Shown here: in pieces, positions 3,374 to 16,471 of the stretch
Position numbering within the stretch: position 1 is the stretch's first letter
Layout: each line of letters begins with the position of its first letter
DNA from: Promethearchaeota archaeon
Lineage (GTDB): Archaea; Asgardarchaeota; Lokiarchaeia; Sigyniarchaeales; SOKP01
Direction: 5' to 3'
Length of the DNA stretch: 64,000 nt
NCBI GenBank assembly: GCA_016839705.1
Contig: JAEOTR010000030.1
Coordinates: 39,084-103,083 of the forward strand
Translations under genes and position numbers: made by a program
The notes under the pieces: model-generated
Told to the model about the DNA's origin: nothing
Database searches by the model: none
Seen by the model: only the letters and a program-made list of their open reading frames with translations

Positions 3374-3473
3374 ATTAAGAGGTCGTTTGGTCCTTATACT
3401 GGGCTAAGTTTCGTTAAATTCAATCTTGACTGGTCACCTAAGGTTTAAGCCATTTCGCTTCTTCGACCTTAAT
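3374..3473. ncRNA. Candidate structured non-coding element (three-way junction)
   Basis: Nested complementary segments 3374-3385/3464-3473, 3392-3396/3439-3443 and 3447-3450/3457-3460 in a GC-richer intergenic patch. No known family recognised. Confidence 0.3.
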
Positions 3474-4001
3474 TAAAGAGAAACAAAGAAATTTTATTGA
3501 TAATGATTGAACTGTAAAACATTTCTAACCTATTTTGCTTTCTTCTACCAAAAAATTCAATATCATCGTCATAAACTATAATCTTAATAGAAAGAAAATA
3601 GATTGACTATTTGATAATCACTATTTTCATAATCTGAATTGAATCTATTATAATTATTCACCATATTATCGAATTTGGAAAAGCTTGTATCATTGTGATA
3701 GAACAATTTTATCGCATTTTTTAACATACATGATCAATCTTGATCGATCACTTTTCCGTTATAGGATCACAATATTAATGCAATCCGCAATGTTTATATA
3801 CGATATCTGACATATAACTATTAGAGAACGATCAAGTTTCCGGCTCTCGACGGTCATTTATATTCCCACATGCATTCATGTAAGAATTTGATAACAAAAG
3901 GGGGATGATTTTGATAGTTTGTATGATCATTATTAGTTCATATTCGCCGAAAATTGATCTTTCAAGAAAAAATAAAAAAACAAAAAAAAAGGAGGATGAA
4001 A

Positions 4002-4601
4002 ATGAATAATATAATGTTTGAAACTTTGGCTGATAATAATTTTTCCGTATATATGATACAAGAAAAGGATGAAAAGGTTAAAGAAGACGATGTAGAAAGA
4101 ATATTAGAGAATATCAAGGATATTTCTATAAATTTCGCTACAATTGATTTGGGCCATATGAATTTAAGGGAGTTTAACGAAACTGCTTTATCAAAAGTAT
4201 TAAGGAAGTTTGGGATTCCTTATTTCACGATTCAATTACCCCATTATGTTAAAGGGCATTATTCAAGCCAACTGAGTGAAATTCAAAATAAGTATAATGA
4301 GTTAAAATCTACTTATGATTCACTAAAAGATAAAAATGCTCCTAGTGCTCAAGAACTCTGTTATTTAATTCAATACTATTCAACTGAGCTTAAAGAATTA
4401 AACCACTACATTAGTAAACAAGTGCGAACGAGCGCAGTGACCAAAAGAATTTTAGAAGTCATAAAAGATCGTCCAGATGAAGATATGACCTTTATTCATT
4501 TTGGTGAGGAGAATACTTTTGTAGAAATCATGAAAGAGTTGAAAGAATTGAATGTTAAATCTAACGTCATTTTTATACAGAGCTCAAGATTTATAAATTA
4601 A
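4002..4601 (+). CDS. Hypothetical protein, paralog of the N-terminal domain of the 6396..8078 protein (TraB/ChaN-like fold?)
   Basis: ORF opens at 3954; GGAGG at 3991-3995 supports ATG 4002. Shares LRKxxIPY and VR..R/KI..H motifs with the N-terminus of 6396..8078. Confidence 0.75.
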   Translation: MNNIMFETLADNNFSVYMIQEKDEKVKEDDVERILENIKDISINFATIDLGHMNLREFNETALSKVLRKFGIPYFTIQLPHYVKGHYSSQLSEIQNKYNELKSTYDSLKDKNAPSAQELCYLIQYYSTELKELNHYISKQVRTSAVTKRILEVIKDRPDEDMTFIHFGEENTFVEIMKELKELNVKSNVIFIQSSRFIN

Positions 4602-4652
4602 TTTTATTCCCAAATTAAAATTTAGAGAATTAAAAACGCAGAGGTAAGAGTT

Positions 4653-6197
4653 ATGAAAATAATTGAAGAAGAGTATGATCTGGCAATCATCGGAGCGGGT
4701 CCAGGTGGCTATCATTCAGCCATCAGAGCAGCTCAATATGGTGCGAAAGTTGCATTAATTGAAAAAGACAAATTAGGTGGCACATGTTTAAATAGAGGAT
4801 GCATTCCTACTAAAGCATTACTTGCTTCTGCCCATTTTATTGAGAAAATTCAAAAAGCAGAAGAATTTGGTGTAGAGATTAAAGGTTTTAGTTCTAATTT
4901 CAGTAAGGTAGTAGAGCGAAAAGATAAGATAGTAAATGAACTTGGCACTGGTATCGCAAATCTACAAAAGGCTTGGAAAAATGACGTTTACATCGGATTT
5001 GGTAAGATTCTTAGAGGTAATGCTCAAGAAGGTTTTAAAGTATTAATTCAGGGAGAAAATAATGAGGAGTTAATTCATGCTAAAAGAGTTATTATAGCAA
5101 CTGGTTCGACTCCTGCTTTAATACCAAATTTTAATGTAGACCATAAAAGAATTTTAACAAGTGATGATATTTTGGATTCCAATTTCAAAACTATTCCCAA
5201 AAGATTGTTAATTATTGGAGCAGGGGTTATTGGATGTGAGTTTGCAGACATTTTTACAACTTTTGGGAGTAAAGTAACATTGTTAGAATATCTACCTTCA
5301 CCAATCGCGACGGAAGAACCAATAATTATTAAGCAGTTACAAAAGAAATTCGATTCAAAAGGAATTAAGATCATTACTTCTCAAAATGTATTATCTGTAG
5401 AAAACACAGGCTCAAGTGTAAAAGCTTTAACCTGTTCTGCTTCAGTGCCAACAGAAGAAATTGAACTCGCAGAAAAATTTAGTTTTGAGGCTGATCTATG
5501 TTTAATTTCTATTGGTAGGAATAAGGTGTCAAAAAATTTGGGATTAGAGGAATTAGGCATTGAAACAAGAAGGGGAGCAATTGAAGTTGATCCAGGCACA
5601 TTAGAAACTGTTGTCAATGGAATATATGCAATTGGCGATGTGACTGGAGGAATTATGCTTGCTCATGTAGCAAGTTATGAGGGTGATATAGCAGTTGCAA
5701 ATGCTCTGCGTAGTCTCGGAGTAATCAAAAATCATTCTAGGAGAACTAATTATAGGGTCGTTCCTTCTACAATTTTTACAAGTCCTAATATCGGTTCAGT
5801 CGGATTGAAAAGAAATCAGGCTAGAGAACTAGGTATAGATGTTTTAGTTGGTCAATTTCCATATGAATCCCTTGGAAAAGCGAAATGTATGGGAGAAGAA
5901 GGACTTCTAATATTATTAGCAGATAAACATACTCTCCAAATAGTTGGTGCTTCTTGCATTGGTGAAGGGGCTTCAGAATTAATTGCTGAGGTGGCACTTG
6001 CCATGCAACACGGTTTATCCATCGAAGACATCACTCATACAATCCATAGTCATCCAACTCTCTCAGAAATGGTGCTAGAAGCAGCAGAGGCAGTTAAAGG
6101 TCGAGCTATTCATAAAAAAGGACACCCTATTGCGCCTAGATTAAGAGATATTCTAATGGAGCAACTTCCTTTGGGAGTTGAATACGGAACAGAATAA
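4653..6197 (+). CDS. lpdA: Dihydrolipoamide dehydrogenase
   Basis: GAGPGG, GGTCLNRGCIPTK, GAGVIGCE, AIGD, LAHVA and HSHPTLSE motifs. Confidence 0.93.
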   Translation: MKIIEEEYDLAIIGAGPGGYHSAIRAAQYGAKVALIEKDKLGGTCLNRGCIPTKALLASAHFIEKIQKAEEFGVEIKGFSSNFSKVVERKDKIVNELGTGIANLQKAWKNDVYIGFGKILRGNAQEGFKVLIQGENNEELIHAKRVIIATGSTPALIPNFNVDHKRILTSDDILDSNFKTIPKRLLIIGAGVIGCEFADIFTTFGSKVTLLEYLPSPIATEEPIIIKQLQKKFDSKGIKIITSQNVLSVENTGSSVKALTCSASVPTEEIELAEKFSFEADLCLISIGRNKVSKNLGLEELGIETRRGAIEVDPGTLETVVNGIYAIGDVTGGIMLAHVASYEGDIAVANALRSLGVIKNHSRRTNYRVVPSTIFTSPNIGSVGLKRNQARELGIDVLVGQFPYESLGKAKCMGEEGLLILLADKHTLQIVGASCIGEGASELIAEVALAMQHGLSIEDITHTIHSHPTLSEMVLEAAEAVKGRAIHKKGHPIAPRLRDILMEQLPLGVEYGTE

Positions 6198-6395
6198 ATT
6201 CTAACTTTTCTTTTTTATATTTTTTCAATAATTCTTATTTTCTGTTTTATGTAACAAATAGATCATCAATATGCTCGAATAGCAACATTTATATGCTTGG
6301 AAAACATAATATGATTTGGGAAAATCTACAAAAAAATATCGAAAAATGAAAATGGTAAATATTATCTAATTAAAAATAAGAGGTGTTGACAAAAA

Positions 6396-8078
6396 ATGGA
6401 AGTTTTAGAATTAAAACCTTTAAAAAAAAATCGATTAAAATTAGTTTTAATTGAAAGTGAATTTCCTATTGAATGGTGGTTTGAAAGCTCAGCACAGAAA
6501 AAACATGACTTAGTATGGAATTTGAATTTAATTTCAAAAGAATATATTGATTTAATTGAAGGTCTCATTAACAAGTATAATCCTAATTATGTTACTGAAG
6601 AGAAAGGTAGCAGGTGGGAAGAAGTAATATCACAAAATGACCCAATAGCTACATTATTAAGAAAATATGAGATACCCTATCAAATGGTAGACATTTCCGA
6701 AAATGCTGAGGGTTATCTCTCTGTAAATTTTGATGAATATAGAACTCTAATTGAACAATTAGAAAGAAATCTTTATAACTATTCCAATTCTAGCGAATCA
6801 GCCATTCAAAATGAATTCGAATATCAGAGAGCTGTATTATGGAAGGAGCATTTACAACAAGAGTATAATAATAAAGAAAATGATATAAGATATAAAGTTC
6901 GAGAAGCGTGGATGATGATGAAAATTATGAAATTCGCAAGAAAGATTGAAAAAAAAAATCTTACTGCTTTTCATATTTGTGATCCACACCATTTTAAAGG
7001 AATTAAGAGACTAGCTGAAGAATTGGGAGTTATTATTGAGGAGATAAAAATTAAAAGAGAAAGTAAAATTGTCCATAGTTCTGAAATATTTCCAATAAAG
7101 AGTATGATGAATAATTCAATAATAGAATTAACACCTGTAAAAATAAAGAAAAAGGAGAAACTTGATAAAATTTGTTATTTTTTTGACACTGATGAAAAAG
7201 CCTCTCCTTTTGATATTAATATGGCTTATGATGCAGGATTTGACGTGGTTGTTCCATTTAATAATGTAAAAGCAAAACAAGTACAAAAATTAGTTCAAGA
7301 TGCGATCTTTTCACGTAGACCTGGTGCTCCTACATCATTCTTTATTGGTGGATCGGATGTGAAAGAAGGAGAGGAAATAGCTCACACTGTTATTAATTCA
7401 TTGGTACACCCTTACGAATGTCCTGTAATTATCGATCCTAGAGGCTCCTATACAACAGCCTCTTCAATTGTAGCGAAAACTATGGAAATAACCAAAGCTA
7501 ATAATATTGATGATTTAAGAGGAAAAAAAGTCGTAATTTTAGGAGCAGGTCCAGTTGCTCAGATCGCAGCCATATTAGCTGCTAAATTAAAATGTCATAC
7601 CTACCTAGTAGAAACTTGGAATAAGTCTAATGAGAAATTTATTGAGGAATTATCACGAGAATTATCAAAGGAAGCTGGAATAGATGCTACAAGAATTATA
7701 GGAATATTCGCAGTACACGATGAAGAAAAATACCAAATTTTGAAAGATGCAGATATCATATGGTCTCTAGCTGCCGTAGGTATTCAAGTATTATCAAGAG
7801 ATGTAATGAATAAATTAAAAAACAAAATAATCTTTGATATAAACTTAGTACCTCCGTATGGTGTTGATGGACTAAAACCCAAGGATTCTAATAGAGAAAT
7901 CTTTCCAAGCATTTTCGGAACTGGGGCATTAACAGTGGGTCGTCTAAAATCTAAAGTTGAGGAAGCCATTCTAAAAGAAGCTTCAATAACCAATGGGAAA
8001 AAAGTTTTTGATTATCTATTCGCATTCGAAAAAGCAAAACAACTAATATTTGGAAATGAAATAGAAATCTCTCAATAA
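6396..8078 (+). CDS. mtdB: NAD(P)-dependent methylene-H4MPT dehydrogenase (MtdB-like) fused to a ~250 aa N-terminal domain of unknown function
   Basis: SPFDINMAYDAG, VQDAIFSR, FFIGG, DPRGSYTTA, GAGPV and DINLVPPYGV are Mtd motifs; the N-terminal extension is extra. Confidence 0.85.
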   Translation: MEVLELKPLKKNRLKLVLIESEFPIEWWFESSAQKKHDLVWNLNLISKEYIDLIEGLINKYNPNYVTEEKGSRWEEVISQNDPIATLLRKYEIPYQMVDISENAEGYLSVNFDEYRTLIEQLERNLYNYSNSSESAIQNEFEYQRAVLWKEHLQQEYNNKENDIRYKVREAWMMMKIMKFARKIEKKNLTAFHICDPHHFKGIKRLAEELGVIIEEIKIKRESKIVHSSEIFPIKSMMNNSIIELTPVKIKKKEKLDKICYFFDTDEKASPFDINMAYDAGFDVVVPFNNVKAKQVQKLVQDAIFSRRPGAPTSFFIGGSDVKEGEEIAHTVINSLVHPYECPVIIDPRGSYTTASSIVAKTMEITKANNIDDLRGKKVVILGAGPVAQIAAILAAKLKCHTYLVETWNKSNEKFIEELSRELSKEAGIDATRIIGIFAVHDEEKYQILKDADIIWSLAAVGIQVLSRDVMNKLKNKIIFDINLVPPYGVDGLKPKDSNREIFPSIFGTGALTVGRLKSKVEEAILKEASITNGKKVFDYLFAFEKAKQLIFGNEIEISQ

Positions 8079-8802: not shown

Positions 8803-9420
8803 TTATGTATCTCTGTTAACAACCTTTTCATTAATTTTTTTAGGGAAGAACATACCCGTCTTCCTTTTGTAGTCAATATAGGATTCCCCATACCTAACTA
8901 CTAAATCTTTCTCTTCTGCCTTACAAAACCAGTAAAAAAGTGGGAACCATACGATAGAATATATAAAAAGAAATGGAGAATTTAAAATTAGGGCAACTGA
9001 CAACCAAATAAAGGCTTCCCCTAATGCTTGAGGGTGTCTAATCTTTTCATATATCCCCGAATAAAGAGTATGACTTATATCTGGGAAAAGAGCTTCTCTT
9101 CCTGCATCTTTAACTCCTTTTAACATAATGTATAAAGAAGGAAGTAAAATGATAATAGCAATAAGAATGGATATCCAATAATCCCATATAAAGAATTGAG
9201 GTATTGGAATAGGTAATGGGAGAAAAAAGTAGAATAGATAATTAACTACTGTAATTAATTCAAATACACTTGCAGTTATCCTATAATACGCGCATCTTGA
9301 AAATGCTTTTAATCCTATTTTTTGACTTAATGTTGCTGGATAGACACTCTTGATATAAAATAATGCCATTATGGCAGTTGAGAGAATTAGTATTATAAAA
9401 TTAATCCAACTAAACATCAT
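8803..9420 (-). CDS. Isoprenylcysteine carboxylmethyltransferase/PEMT family membrane protein
   Basis: GIYEKIRHPQ, EEKDL..RYG.SY..YK..TGMFFP motifs; multiple TM helices. Confidence 0.88.
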   Translation of the reverse strand: MMFSWINFIILILSTAIMALFYIKSVYPATLSQKIGLKAFSRCAYYRITASVFELITVVNYLFYFFLPLPIPIPQFFIWDYWISILIAIIILLPSLYIMLKGVKDAGREALFPDISHTLYSGIYEKIRHPQALGEAFIWLSVALILNSPFLFIYSIVWFPLFYWFCKAEEKDLVVRYGESYIDYKRKTGMFFPKKINEKVVNRDT

Positions 9421-9460
9421 AGTATTTAATTCTGCTAAGGATATAACACTTTATTTTCCT

Positions 9461-10486
9461 TTAACTATAATAGAGAATTTTCCGATTTTTTTCAATAGAG
9501 TGTACTAAACCTTGATTTTCAAGGAAAAATAAATGTCCAAGCGTTTCTGAAAGAGCTAAGAATGAATTTGTATCATCTAACTCCCCAAAATGTAATTGGG
9601 AAATTTCTAAGGGTGTTCGAGCTTTATCTTTAATTACCCGTGATATATCTGCTAACCTATTTTTATGATGTTCCTTAATCTCTGAAATACGCTTATGAGG
9701 ATCATAGATTATTTCTTGGTGAGCGGGAAATATTATTTTAGGCCCAAGCTTGTCAATTCGATCTAAAGAATCTAAATAATGGCTAAGGATGTTGTTAAAG
9801 TCATAACCTTCATATTGTTCAGTAAGAAATCTTGGTACAATATAATTTCCGATATGAGGAGTTATCCGTGATAGGATATGGTCCCCAACAAACAAATATT
9901 TAGTCTTCGTATTAAACAAACAGATATGACCAAAACTATGCCCGGGTGTCCAAATAACCTCTAAGTCATTAAGGATCTTATCTCCATCATGTAAAATTAT
10001 ATCTGGTTTTTGATACTGACGTAATTTAGGCCAATAACTAAGAAATGATATCACTCTTTCGGACTGACTTTCATTAAAACCATATGTTATCATTTGGTTT
10101 GCGATTTTTGTAGCTTCTCTTTCAATCTCACTTAGATTTTCTTGCTCAGTTTCCCATTTAAGAGTTTCATAGGTGATGTGATGCATTAGAAGCTTGAGAT
10201 CCGGATTCCTTTTCTTTAAGGTGGGAGCTAATCCAACATGATCAGTATGATTGTGAGAAATAAAGCAATAATCAATATCTTGAAGTGAAATATTAATTTT
10301 TTTAAGAGCTGAAAAGAATAACTTACTCCAGTTTGCCATGTTTAATCCTGAATCGAAAAGGATTTTACTCCCCTTATGGTCAAAAAGATACACACTTACG
10401 TTTTTTACTGACCATGGTACATCAATTTTAATTTGATGGACATCTTCAATTTTATTTATTTCAGAGTTAAAACTTGAGAAGTACAA
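9461..10486 (-). CDS. MBL-fold metallo-hydrolase with C-terminal wHTH
   Basis: SHNHTDHVG, TPGHSFGH, GDH and PAH motifs. Confidence 0.92.
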   Translation of the reverse strand: MYFSSFNSEINKIEDVHQIKIDVPWSVKNVSVYLFDHKGSKILFDSGLNMANWSKLFFSALKKINISLQDIDYCFISHNHTDHVGLAPTLKKRNPDLKLLMHHITYETLKWETEQENLSEIEREATKIANQMITYGFNESQSERVISFLSYWPKLRQYQKPDIILHDGDKILNDLEVIWTPGHSFGHICLFNTKTKYLFVGDHILSRITPHIGNYIVPRFLTEQYEGYDFNNILSHYLDSLDRIDKLGPKIIFPAHQEIIYDPHKRISEIKEHHKNRLADISRVIKDKARTPLEISQLHFGELDDTNSFLALSETLGHLFFLENQGLVHSIEKNRKILYYS

Positions 10487-10652: not shown

Positions 10653-12143
10653 ATGATAGAAAAGATGGAAAGAGAGTTAGAAAAAGATTTATCGAAAATT
10701 CTCAAGAAAGAAAAGTTTCAAGGAAATATGATTGGTTACATGTCAAAAGTAGGAAAGTTATTACTTTTTGTGCTTCCAGTTCTTCTAGTAATAGTAACAA
10801 TATTTACATTATTCATTCCACTTAGTTTTACATTAAATATAATTTTCTATACGATTTTAGCACTTTATTTATTCAATTCAATTATGCTATTTCTAGGGGC
10901 TAGTTCTACTGAATCATCACTAAAGATGCGCTTAAATTTTGAAAGGAAAAGAGGGAGACCTATTGATAGTCTTGATGGATTTGATTTATTATCCAACAAT
11001 GTAAAGAGAGTTACTAATTTATTGAAAATAATTGCACTCGTTTGCCTCGTTGCATTAGCGTTGTTTGTTATAATGCTTTTCATGGGAGACTTAAATTTAG
11101 GATTTGCAGCTGCAGGGTTCTCATTAATAGGTTTTGGTTTGGCGTTATTAATCAGAAGTTTAAATCTTAACATTCATGATGTTAACGGCCTCCAAGATTT
11201 CTATAAACCTACCACTCACCAGATATTTTTAGATAATTTTTTCGGAGAAATATTATCAAACCATTTAGATCCTGTTACATTCCTCAAATGGGATGAATAC
11301 CTTACAGAGATTAACAAAATATTAACACTTAGTTTTGTACAAAAAATAAAAGAAGAGGAACCTGATGAGCTACCCATTACGTTTGCCATAGAAAAGATAC
11401 TTTTTCTCTACTATTTGAAGTTCCAAGATGTTTTAACTGAAGATCAGTTTGTTCAAGAATTAAAAGAAGTAATCAAAGTTGATTCAGATACGTTTGATAT
11501 TAACAAAGGTATGCTAATAGAAAATATATGGCATTTTTCCCAAAGGGATATCGGTAAGTTATTTTCCTATATCAAAAAATTCAATCCTGGATTTTTCAAC
11601 ATAATAGATAGACTACAACTAGAATTAGCAGATAATATTGAACGATTATCAAAAGATCCAATTTATATGGATTCGACTGCTCAAGAAGTTGTATTTTTGA
11701 ATTCAGAATTGAATATATTTTGCTTCTTATATAACAATTCTCCAAGAGCTAAAAAATATATCATAAAGGTAAATGCACCGGGATTTGAACCGAATAAATT
11801 AAAACTTGATATAGAAGTAGAAGGGCGGGGAACTTTTTTAATACCTGATAAGCCTATACCCTTAATTTCGTCTGAAGGAAGAGATATCGCAGGAGTATTA
11901 TCAAATATGCTAGAGAATGGAGATACAACATGGTTAACTTTAGAACCGAGGGAAACAGGAGAACAAACTATCCAAATATTCTTACTTTCAGAGGATGGAA
12001 CAATTATCGAAGGAAAAACGCGTTCAGTGAAAGTTTCAAAAGATATAAAAACTTATTTGAAGAAATTCAGCTCTATCGGTTCCCTCCTTGGTGGATTAGC
12101 TGTACCCTTAGCTAAAATATTGCCTTCTCTTCTTGCAGCTTAA
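10653..12143 (+). CDS. Hypothetical membrane protein (4 N-terminal TMs, beta-rich C-terminal domain)
   Basis: Long ORF with hydrophobic segments; no family recognised. Confidence 0.7.
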   Translation: MIEKMERELEKDLSKILKKEKFQGNMIGYMSKVGKLLLFVLPVLLVIVTIFTLFIPLSFTLNIIFYTILALYLFNSIMLFLGASSTESSLKMRLNFERKRGRPIDSLDGFDLLSNNVKRVTNLLKIIALVCLVALALFVIMLFMGDLNLGFAAAGFSLIGFGLALLIRSLNLNIHDVNGLQDFYKPTTHQIFLDNFFGEILSNHLDPVTFLKWDEYLTEINKILTLSFVQKIKEEEPDELPITFAIEKILFLYYLKFQDVLTEDQFVQELKEVIKVDSDTFDINKGMLIENIWHFSQRDIGKLFSYIKKFNPGFFNIIDRLQLELADNIERLSKDPIYMDSTAQEVVFLNSELNIFCFLYNNSPRAKKYIIKVNAPGFEPNKLKLDIEVEGRGTFLIPDKPIPLISSEGRDIAGVLSNMLENGDTTWLTLEPRETGEQTIQIFLLSEDGTIIEGKTRSVKVSKDIKTYLKKFSSIGSLLGGLAVPLAKILPSLLAA

Positions 12144-14806: not shown

Positions 14807-14947
14807 CAGTTTTATCTTCAGTTTTTCGTTTTTGATTTTAGTAATAGCATTATAAGTTTATGAAGAACATATAATTCAATCCTTCCTTCTATTTCTATTT
14901 AAATTATTAATATAAACTTTAAAAATGATATAGACAAGAATGAAATT

Positions 14948-16471
14948 ATGGAAACTTATGACTTAGTAGTTATTGGAAGTGGAGCGGGTTTAAGTGTTTT
15001 GAATGTAGGCCTACAAGTCGGGATGAAATGTGCGCTAGTTGAGGATACAAAATTGGGAGGTACGTGCTTAACACGAGGTTGTATTCCTTCTAAGGTGTTA
15101 GTTCATCCCGCAGATTTAATTCGAGAAGCTCAACATGCAAAAAAGGTTGGAGTTCATCTAAATATTGAAAAAATTGATTGGGATTTAATTTCAAAAAGAA
15201 TGTGGTCACAGATTGACGAAAATAAGCAAATGGAGGAAGGATTATCACATGTACCAAACCTAAAAATGTTTAGAGGTATTGGTGAATTTGTTGGAGAATA
15301 TGAAATGGAAGTTAAGTCTCGTGATGGTAAGGAGAGTATTGGAAGATTTAAAGGTGAAAAATTTGTTATAGCATCAGGTGCACGCACTATTATACCCCCA
15401 ATTGAAGATTTAGAAGAAGTAGGTTTTGTAACCAGTAGAACTTTTTTTGGAGATAAATTCCCTAAACAACCATGGAAAAGTCTTATAATTATTGGTGGAG
15501 GTGTGATTGCCGCTGAGTTTGCCCATATTTTCTCCGCAATGGGAACTGAGGTTACTATAATAGAAATGCTTCCACGTTTAATAACAACAGAAGAACCTGA
15601 GATTAGTGAATTTTTAGAGCAGAATTTCAAGAAGCATATGACCGTTTATGTTAATTATAGAGCAATTAAAGCCAAAGGAAAAAAAAAAAATAAAGCTATT
15701 ATCGCCCAAAATATGAACGACGGTAAAGAAATTGAAGTTTCTGCCGAAGAAATTCTTATTGCTACTGGACGACGCTCAAATGCAGATATTTTAAAAGTAA
15801 ATATGACTGGTATTGAAACTGATGAAAAAGGATGGATTAAGACAAATAAATACTTAGAAACCAGTAAAAAGAATATCTGGTGTTTTGGTGACGCTAATGG
15901 ACTTTATCAATTTCGACATAAAGCAAATTATGAAGCAGAAATCTGTACTAATAATATTTTCGGACCAGAAGACCAAAAAAAGTCTGCTGACTATTCTACT
16001 GTACCTTGGGCAATCTTTACCCATCCTCAAGTAGGACACGTCGGAATGACCCAAGCAGAAGCAGTTGAAAAAGGTCATGAGATATTTGTAGCAAAAAAGA
16101 ATTATTCTACTATTGCTAAAGGTTTTGCTATGGGTTTTAGTGCAGATGATGTAGATGACGGATTTGTTAAATTAATAGTTGATAAATCTTATCGGCTTCT
16201 AGGTGCTCATGTAGTTGGTCCTCACGCTGCTATTTTAGTCCAGCCATTTGTGTATTTGATGAATTCGGGATTCACATGTTCATTACCAGAACCTCAAAGT
16301 GAAATTAATATTCCTAAATTAGAAAAAGCTTGCCCGGAAGCAGGTTCTTTTATGCCGATATACAATTCAATGGTTATTCATCCCTCTCTTAATGAAGTTA
16401 CTGGTTGGGCAATCGGGAATTTGAAACCGATTAATATAAAAATGGAAAACCATGAACATCATCATAGTTAG
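14948..16471 (+). CDS. Class I pyridine nucleotide-disulfide oxidoreductase (mycothione reductase/Lpd-like)
   Basis: GGTCLTRGCIPSK, YQFRHKANYEA and IHPSLNE motifs; His-rich tail. Confidence 0.85.
   Translation: METYDLVVIGSGAGLSVLNVGLQVGMKCALVEDTKLGGTCLTRGCIPSKVLVHPADLIREAQHAKKVGVHLNIEKIDWDLISKRMWSQIDENKQMEEGLSHVPNLKMFRGIGEFVGEYEMEVKSRDGKESIGRFKGEKFVIASGARTIIPPIEDLEEVGFVTSRTFFGDKFPKQPWKSLIIIGGGVIAAEFAHIFSAMGTEVTIIEMLPRLITTEEPEISEFLEQNFKKHMTVYVNYRAIKAKGKKKNKAIIAQNMNDGKEIEVSAEEILIATGRRSNADILKVNMTGIETDEKGWIKTNKYLETSKKNIWCFGDANGLYQFRHKANYEAEICTNNIFGPEDQKKSADYSTVPWAIFTHPQVGHVGMTQAEAVEKGHEIFVAKKNYSTIAKGFAMGFSADDVDDGFVKLIVDKSYRLLGAHVVGPHAAILVQPFVYLMNSGFTCSLPEPQSEINIPKLEKACPEAGSFMPIYNSMVIHPSLNEVTGWAIGNLKPINIKMENHEHHHS

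Follow-up and report, generated by a model that had tools for sequence, protein, structure and literature searches.

A protein family of Asgard archaea that lies beside or is fused to redox enzymes

Gene organization of the locus

We analyzed a stretch of 64,000 nt (the window) from a Promethearchaeota archaeon (GCA_016839705.1, contig JAEOTR010000030.1, positions 39,084-103,083 of the forward strand). Between positions 4002 and 8078 it carries three genes on the same strand, which encode a small free protein, a protein like dihydrolipoyl dehydrogenase (Lpd) and a fusion of a small N-terminal domain to a methylene-tetrahydromethanopterin (methylene-H4MPT) dehydrogenase (Mtd). All three genes lie where an earlier reading of the DNA, made without database searches and called the sequence-only reading here, had placed them. 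The free protein and the N-terminal domain of the fusion are members of one protein family, of which four types (L, M, T and H) are distinguished below.

The first gene (4002..4601, +) encodes the free protein of 199 aa, which is of L type. Its start is the ATG at 4002, which is shared by about 95 homologs, all of them 193-207 aa long. An alternative reading frame of 215 aa, starting with TTG at 3954, was rejected because it exceeds the length of every homolog. The lpd gene (4653..6197, +) follows after 51 bp and encodes 514 aa. The protein matches TIGR01350 with 475.8 bits and thereby passes the curated equivalog cut-off of 408.8. It contains the disulfide motif CLNRGC (residues 45-50) and the dyad motif HSHPTLSE near the C-terminus, both of which are invariant in 19 orthologs. 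Solved Lpds align to it only through residue 480-488 of 514. The remaining C-terminal extension (residues 489-514; 6117..6194, +), with the core PRLRDILMEQ, is conserved among the orthologs that follow an L gene and is referred to as the tail.

The fusion gene (6396..8078, +) encodes 560 aa. Residues 1-228 (6396..7079, +) form the M-type domain, followed by a linker (7080..7166, +) which is variable in alignments and modelled with a predicted local distance difference test score (pLDDT) of only 40-67 for residues 221-255. The remainder (7167..8078, +) is an NAD(P)-dependent methylene-H4MPT dehydrogenase core of the MtdA/MtdB type. This core matches Pfam Mpt_N (PF09176) with 90.9 bits (cut-off 27) and carries a Rossmann domain. 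It aligns over its full length (core residues 3-294) with the solved MtdA structures 1LU9 and 6TGE at an E-value of about 5e-26.

Two similar 14-mers, GCAATGTTTATATA (3787..3800, +) and GCAACATTTATATG (6282..6295, +), were found by direct reading of the DNA about 200 and 100 nt before the respective start codons. The former lies upstream of the L-lpd pair and the latter upstream of the fusion gene, within the 198-bp gap behind lpd. They look like ordinary archaeal promoters with BRE/TATA-like elements rather than a special shared operator. Because of the 198-bp gap and its own TATA-like element, the fusion gene is probably a separate transcription unit.

Homology of the free protein and the fused domain

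The sequence-only reading had aligned the free protein by eye with the N-terminal part of the fusion, and this likeness turned out to reflect homology, the two being paralogs. A BLASTP comparison of the free protein with fusion residues 1-260 is marginal (E 4e-4, 20% identity), but the comparison of profiles settles the question: hhalign of 22 free-type proteins against 25 fusion N-domains gave a probability of 97.9% and an E-value of 5.7e-13 over 192 columns. In addition, a hidden Markov model of the free type recovered the fusion from the whole genome at 2.6e-10, and the model of the fusion type recovered nearly all free-type open reading frames (ORFs) in related loci at 1e-6 to 1e-10. A third paralog from a metagenomic locus (P0216) matches both window genes, with 9e-18 and 9e-7. 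In the window genome itself no third paralog was detected, as the queries A1, A2 and P0216 match only the two window genes.

AlphaFold2 models of the free (pLDDT 82) and the fused protein (pLDDT 81) show a common layout with a core of alternating strands and helices, and in both a helical hairpin of 60-70 residues interrupts this core ahead of the fourth strand. For the free protein and for fusion residues 1-255 alike, no family of Pfam or NCBIfam scored above its cut-off, and the PDB sequence profile search revealed no significant family for either domain. SLATT_6, glutaredoxin and SH3BGR gave weak matches, which were discarded since they stay below the cut-offs and cover short stretches only. 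The family is uncharacterised: neither Pfam nor NCBIfam has a model for it, and the literature searched does not describe it.

Subfamilies and conserved residues

For identification of further members, a profile of all subfamilies was searched against 1.84 billion representative proteins. The family comprises 139 cluster representatives, with lengths of either about 180-265 aa or about 550-580 aa, and is so far seen almost only in Asgard archaea. All full-length long forms tested carry the Mtd core, which among them is the sole fusion partner of the family. In one protein of 496 aa (P0275) the order is permuted, with the Mtd core at residues 1-290 and the family domain at 300-488; this is either a true fusion or a merged gene call. 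P0275 falls in the M clade beside a free protein of 206 aa.

In a maximum-likelihood tree built from 96 domains, the M clade and a grade of free proteins, named T, form two deep branches. The L clade is nested within the T grade (SH-aLRT 99), and the H clade is in turn nested within L (SH-aLRT 100). Fused and unfused forms are intermixed in the M clade, where at least 9 changes between them are needed. Fusions in both orders and this mixed tree indicate that the fusion arose more than once.

The M type is characterized by E20, E22, E68, R169, E170 and H199, each present in about 70-85% of 40 M-clade representatives, and by a near-universal acid at position 69. For E20, E22, E68, E170 and H199 the share is about 70-80%, and the L clade has none of these five. 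What the L, T and H types keep is only the acid of strand beta2, the arginine and a histidine six residues earlier. The sequence-only reading had stated that the fused copy keeps a set of glutamate, arginine and histidine residues which the free copy has lost. This is largely right, although the free copy retains D49, R142 and H166 and has a conserved E169 of its own. A conserved cysteine motif for an Fe-S cluster was not detected in the family alignments.

The M type, its T partner and the Mtd core

The distribution of the family was analyzed in 41 genomes of the order to which the window belongs (the order sample). The M domain occurs in 23 of the 41 genomes, and in 18 of these 23 it is immediately preceded by a T gene of the same orientation, which amounts to 21 pairs. 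The regular partner of M is thus T and not the L type found in the window. Unfused M is present as an ORF of 233-262 aa in about a dozen genomes. In the loci L087-L089, separate genes for T (205-209 aa), M (241-243 aa) and the Mtd core (331-337 aa) are adjacent to each other, with gaps of 27-55 nt. Since M also occurs unfused next to an mtd gene, the fusion of the window represents one state of a T-M-Mtd unit. A tandem duplication was observed in locus L090 (G033:C52:1-11000), where T, an M-Mtd fusion, T, unfused M and an M-Mtd fusion follow each other within 6 kb. The layout in a sister genome (G054:C72) matches that of L090.

The T-M-Mtd operons are divergent from genes for a DUF7347-HdrA-MvhD fusion and a hydrogenase small subunit (MvhG), an arrangement seen with every T-M-Mtd operon examined. 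Downstream of the operons, NfnA-like and FrhB/GltD-like genes are located. The divergent fusion protein in L087-L090 has 843-848 aa (e.g., L088:1126-3669, -) and combines DUF7347, possibly a winged helix, with an HdrA-like flavoprotein, ferredoxin domains and MvhD.

All 23 M-positive genomes are also positive for Mch, and M is missing from each of the 11 genomes that are negative for it. This co-occurrence bears indirectly on the substrate of the MtdA/B-like enzyme (H4MPT or tetrahydrofolate) and fits an activity in the H4MPT branch. A canonical Mch, an F420-dependent Mtd and FolD are all present in the window genome and in most relatives. We considered the M domain as a missing cyclohydrolase for methenyl-H4MPT or methenyl-tetrahydrofolate, but rejected it as a gap-filler because Mch, FolD and the F420-dependent Mtd are present. 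The literature searched held nothing relevant on Asgard MtdB, on a methylene-H4MPT dehydrogenase of Lokiarchaeota or on Lpd and glycine cleavage in Asgard archaea.

The L type and the tailed Lpd

Among 32 L-type loci, an lpd gene lies directly downstream of the family gene in 25; two loci end at a contig edge and five are without lpd. All 27 entries of Lpds with L upstream, a count that includes a few contigs fetched twice, have 37-47 residues after the HxHPxxSE motif and thus carry the tail. Of the 25 Lpds without L upstream none has the tail, and only 21-25 residues follow the motif. The window genome itself encodes a second Lpd (contig C42), which is 66% identical, has no L gene upstream and ends without the tail (...KKGRPLHQ). 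Among the 41 genomes of the order sample 38 are Lpd-positive, most of them with a tail-less Lpd, while the combination of tailed Lpd and L was found only in the window genome and one other. As related genomes are not independent of each other, the correlation shows that a clade of tailed Lpds accompanies L and does not demonstrate repeated co-evolution. Complex prediction for the tailed Lpd with L gave scores of 0.62, 0.01 and 0.00, with a median below the mark, and carries no weight on either side of the question of binding.

The L-lpd pair is located beside [NiFe]-hydrogenase, HdrA-MvhD or FrhB genes in about 6 of 22 loci. The sequence-only reading had taken the Lpd of the window for the L protein of the glycine cleavage system. 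This assignment is doubtful, because gcvT, gcvH and gcvP lie together on another contig (C88, where GcvH scores 147.5 bits) and the tail-less paralog is present. GcvH is the only lipoyl carrier found; an E2 or any other lipoyl domain was not detected in the genome, which is 93% complete.

A solitary L gene without lpd nearby was observed in the genus of the window organism (L048/L091, G034:C33:19000-28000), located between TPR/MalT-like genes. The same genome (G034) carries T and an M-Mtd fusion elsewhere.

The H type in Hdr operons

The five L-type loci without lpd consist of this solitary L gene (L048) and four loci of the H type (L046, L047, L049 and L050). The H gene is situated between MvhD and a polyferredoxin gene in an operon of the order HdrB-HdrA-MvhD-H-polyferredoxin, with overlapping stop and start codons. 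Pfam matches confirmed the operon composition in L046 and L093, and the ORFs of L049 are arranged in the same way.

Synteny around the lpd gene

In the window, the free L gene and the M-Mtd fusion bracket lpd, and the sequence-only reading had seen a candidate module in all three genes. The bracket as such is not conserved: the fusion occurs within 10 kb in only 2 of 32 free-type loci. In five syntenic relatives (L030, L031, L035, L037 and L041) the L-lpd pair is followed by PEMT and MBL genes within about 15-85 bp. In the window, PEMT and MBL are found at 8803-10486, and here as in the close relative L020 the M-Mtd gene and a gene for 171-193 aa are inserted after lpd. The intact L-lpd-PEMT-MBL order of the syntenic relatives thus identifies the bracket as a local insertion of the fusion into an older block. 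In L038 and L003, T-M-Mtd is placed upstream of L-lpd. Proximity of L-lpd and M-Mtd therefore recurs in at least two arrangements, although in the majority of L-lpd loci an Mtd fusion is missing from the surrounding 10 kb.

The gene inserted together with the fusion in the window encodes P0217 (8136..8651, +; 171 aa), which has no Pfam match. According to BLAST clustering its relatives occur only in the window, L003, L020 and L038, all of them loci holding L-lpd plus an Mtd fusion, and always at the downstream end of the cluster. An Atlas feature search led to Asgard hypothetical proteins, with the NPR2/longin family as a weak lead (0.89, 19% of cluster members). Further downstream, a gene for 496 aa (10653-12143, +) without Pfam family follows the L-lpd-PEMT-MBL block in seven syntenic Asgard loci, with 78-81% identity. 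At about 14945-16273 (+), 9 kb downstream of lpd, lies the gene for another pyridine-nucleotide-disulfide oxidoreductase, which shares 32% identity with the Lpd; its relative position is the same in L037 and L041, which are syntenic. A candidate for a structured RNA (3374-3473, +) within the 700 bp that precede L was examined and rejected, as it had no Rfam match at E <= 1 and contained no tRNA; its folding z-score was -1.1, i.e., 1.1 standard deviations below shuffled sequences.

A possible role as accessory subunits

Four features are, at the genome level, typical of subunits of enzyme complexes: repeated fusion and fission with Mtd, the pairing of T with M, the link between L and the tailed Lpd, and the overlap of the H gene with its neighbours in Hdr operons. 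The explanation supported best, which we still consider an even call, is that the family proteins act as accessory subunits. They would dock onto NAD(P)-linked dehydrogenases and Hdr-type modules and perhaps join these to one another. In this model they would carry no redox cofactors, and each would bind its own oxidoreductase. M is covalently joined to Mtd, L would probably bind via the tail of Lpd, and H would belong to an Hdr-type complex as one of its subunits. Pairing among the paralogs is a further probable element of the model, and T with M would be its prototype. Such pairing could assemble or control NAD(P)-linked dehydrogenases, possibly on modules for flavin-based electron bifurcation. 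Since the window genome lacks T and its M-Mtd gene was recently inserted after L-lpd, L may replace T there and tie Lpd to Mtd.

Several observations weigh against a role as docking subunits. No test performed here yielded a physical interaction. The acidic, arginine and histidine residues of the M clade, conserved at about 70-85%, are located at the C-terminal edge of the sheet and resemble a ligand-binding or catalytic site more than they do a mere scaffold. L occurs without Lpd, as between the TPR genes of L048/L091, and without M (G050), so that neither partner is strictly required by L. No Hdr or Mvh genes lie nearby in the window. Finally, the relatedness of the genomes means that the perfect correlations overstate the evidence.

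Relation to the TIKI superfamily

The sequence-only reading had likened the residue pattern to the TIKI/TraB/ChaN fold. Several weak signals agree with this comparison, but the catalytic motif is incomplete and membership in the superfamily is not proven. In a structure search, the longest alignments were obtained with ChaN (2G5G, Z 8.1 over 149 aa), HopBA1 (5T09, 7.0 over 146 aa), Bcr136 (2QGM, 6.2 over 153 aa) and PMT (2EC5, 6.2 over 137 aa), all of them listed as proteins of the TIKI superfamily or the Ere family (PMC6254334). All these scores are within the background of the tool, and N-domains of tetrapyrrole methylases reach values just as high (Z 8.4-8.8 over about 120 aa). With the M model as query, Foldseek retrieved no PDB entry at E <= 0.001, and the structure search with the L model was dominated by the helical hairpin and is uninformative.

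In a shape search of the Atlas, TraB/GumN was the first named family apart from the domain itself (TM 0.48/0.51, 157 aa). By language-model features TraB/GumN is also the nearest named cluster (0.82), which is a lead only. The Pfam model TraB_PrgY_gumN (PF01963) found no match among 25 M domains. An hhalign comparison of the whole-family profile with 8 Asgard TraB proteins gave a probability of 45%, an E-value of 2.2e-4 and a score of 34.9 in the region from the arginine to the histidine; 60 block-shuffled controls had a mean score of 16.4 (standard deviation 2.2, maximum 21.6). This alignment puts VREAWM...CD..HF.GI onto RN.YM...G.GH..GI of TraB. Judged from these sequence and model comparisons, which agree with each other although each is weak, true TIKI ancestry of the domain seems somewhat more probable than not. 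The likeliest placement of the domain is as a strongly diverged branch of the TIKI/TraB/ChaN fold.

The motif that defines catalysis in this superfamily consists of two histidines and two glutamates (E-x-H, Glu, His; PMC6254334), and none of the four types carries it in full. With E-x-E, Glu and His, the M type agrees in three of four positions, the first histidine being replaced. At this position the M clade has Phe, Tyr or, in 5 of 40 proteins, His, and no M-specific residue is invariant. L, T and H are without the first motif and H199. Inactive members of the superfamily without the catalytic motif are known, for example PMT (PMC6254334).

These residues are the basis of the strongest alternative, namely that M is an active hydrolase or metal enzyme of TIKI type coupled to Mtd, with T and L as degenerate partners. 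It could, for example, hydrolyse a methenyl- or formyl-pterin intermediate or a cofactor derivative. E20-x-E22, E68/E69, R169-E170 and H199 align to E-x-H, Glu, Arg and His of the TIKI proteins (PMC6254334), the residues lie at the C-terminal ends of predicted strands, and hhalign places the family onto the motif region of TraB. However, the first TIKI histidine is mostly replaced, an invariant M-specific residue is missing, and TIKI membership is itself unproven. Moreover, with Mch, F420-dependent Mtd and FolD present there is no gap in the pathway that such an enzyme would fill. We regard an active M enzyme as unlikely.

Further explanations

The docking model can be made more specific. Paralogs that heterodimerise through their hairpins would plug Mtd (via M) and Lpd (via L and the tail) into the electron-bifurcating machinery of HdrA, MvhD and [NiFe]-hydrogenase by means of H- and T-type partners. 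If this is true, a set of exchangeable adaptors would allow Asgard archaea to link the oxidation of C1 units and glycine to H2 or ferredoxin. In this detailed form we hold the model to be quite unlikely.

It is also conceivable that the domains sense small molecules, e.g., a pterin, a nucleotide or a redox metabolite, and regulate the attached or adjacent oxidoreductase allosterically. The conserved polar residues differ between the subfamilies but occupy one and the same pocket-like site, and the association with several enzymes instead of one pathway step would suit a sensor. On the other hand, no known ligand-binding family was matched, and simple sensing leaves the pairing of T and M in operons unexplained. 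A purely sensory role thus appears improbable.

The sequence-only reading had proposed an enzyme and pseudo-enzyme pair of M and L that scaffolds or regulates the transfer of C1 units between a lipoyl system and the H4MPT branch. The part which holds is that the paralogs are tied to both enzymes, to Mtd by fusion in both orders and by adjacent genes, and to Lpd by synteny and the tail. The specific channel between glycine cleavage and the H4MPT branch is weakly supported. Two observations are consistent with it: the window, L020, L038 and L003 have L-lpd and (T-)M-Mtd less than 10 kb apart, in two or more different arrangements, and GcvH is the only lipoyl carrier found in the genome. However, the majority of L-lpd loci lack an Mtd fusion in the surrounding 10 kb, the adjacency in the window is a local insertion, gcvT-H-P are encoded on another contig, a tail-less Lpd is available as well, and the regular partner of M is T. 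A C1 channel as the function of the L/M pair has a slim chance; it is possible in the window genome, but does not describe how the family works in general.

That the paralogs have unrelated roles and their neighbourhoods result from drift or operon shuffling is hardly credible: the bracket is indeed lineage-specific and solitary L genes exist, but against it stand the recurrent joining and splitting with Mtd, in either order of the two parts, the 21 pairs of T with M and 25 of L with lpd, the correlation of the tail with L, and the overlap of genes in Hdr operons.

Significance for Asgard energy metabolism

Asgard archaea are the closest known relatives of eukaryotes, and their energy metabolism underlies the syntrophy models of eukaryogenesis. 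This metabolism involves the Wood-Ljungdahl pathway, the fermentation of amino acids and the transfer of hydrogen or formate. The family described here is attached at the genome level to three kinds of central redox enzymes, namely Mtd, an Lpd paralog and Hdr/MvhD complexes. The position of its members beside or fused to these enzymes suggests a new kind of accessory subunit. If they are docking or regulatory subunits, they would show how steps producing NAD(P)H are wired to electron bifurcation. If M is an enzyme, it would add a so far undescribed reaction beside Mtd. Either way, the Mtd and Lpd genes, at present annotated as ordinary enzymes, probably encode parts of larger assemblies, whose partners are now defined for testing.

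Comparison with known systems

The predicted structure, an alpha/beta core with helical insertions, bears a weak likeness to that of the TIKI superfamily, which includes Tiki, TraB/PrgY/GumN, ChaN, the erythromycin esterases, HopBA1 and the C-domains of RRSP/PMT. In contrast to these, the family bears the hairpin insert of 60-70 residues, and L, T and H are without most of the motif. We know of no TIKI protein that is fused to or paired with dehydrogenases.

Small accessory proteins in Hdr and Mvh operons, which link a substrate-specific dehydrogenase to HdrA, are exemplified by MvhD and by MetV in MetFV-HdrABC-MvhD. The H type is likewise a small protein encoded in Hdr/Mvh operons. The family has no sequence relation to these adaptor subunits, and the analogy is one of gene context alone.

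The Lpd of the window is a canonical dihydrolipoyl dehydrogenase (E3/L protein) in its sequence, its redox disulfide and its His-Glu dyad. Small dedicated proteins that tether E3 have precedent in E3BP with its PSBD. Compared with known E3 enzymes, the Lpd of the window has an extra tail of 14-26 aa and is paired with an unrelated domain of 200 aa instead of a lipoyl or PSBD protein.

The C-terminal 300 aa of the fusion correspond over their full length to MtdA/MtdB of methylotrophic bacteria (1LU9, 6TGE), including Mpt_N. These bacterial enzymes consist of a single domain, whereas the Asgard core bears or follows an M domain, usually together with a T paralog, and in the window genome it exists alongside an F420-dependent Mtd.

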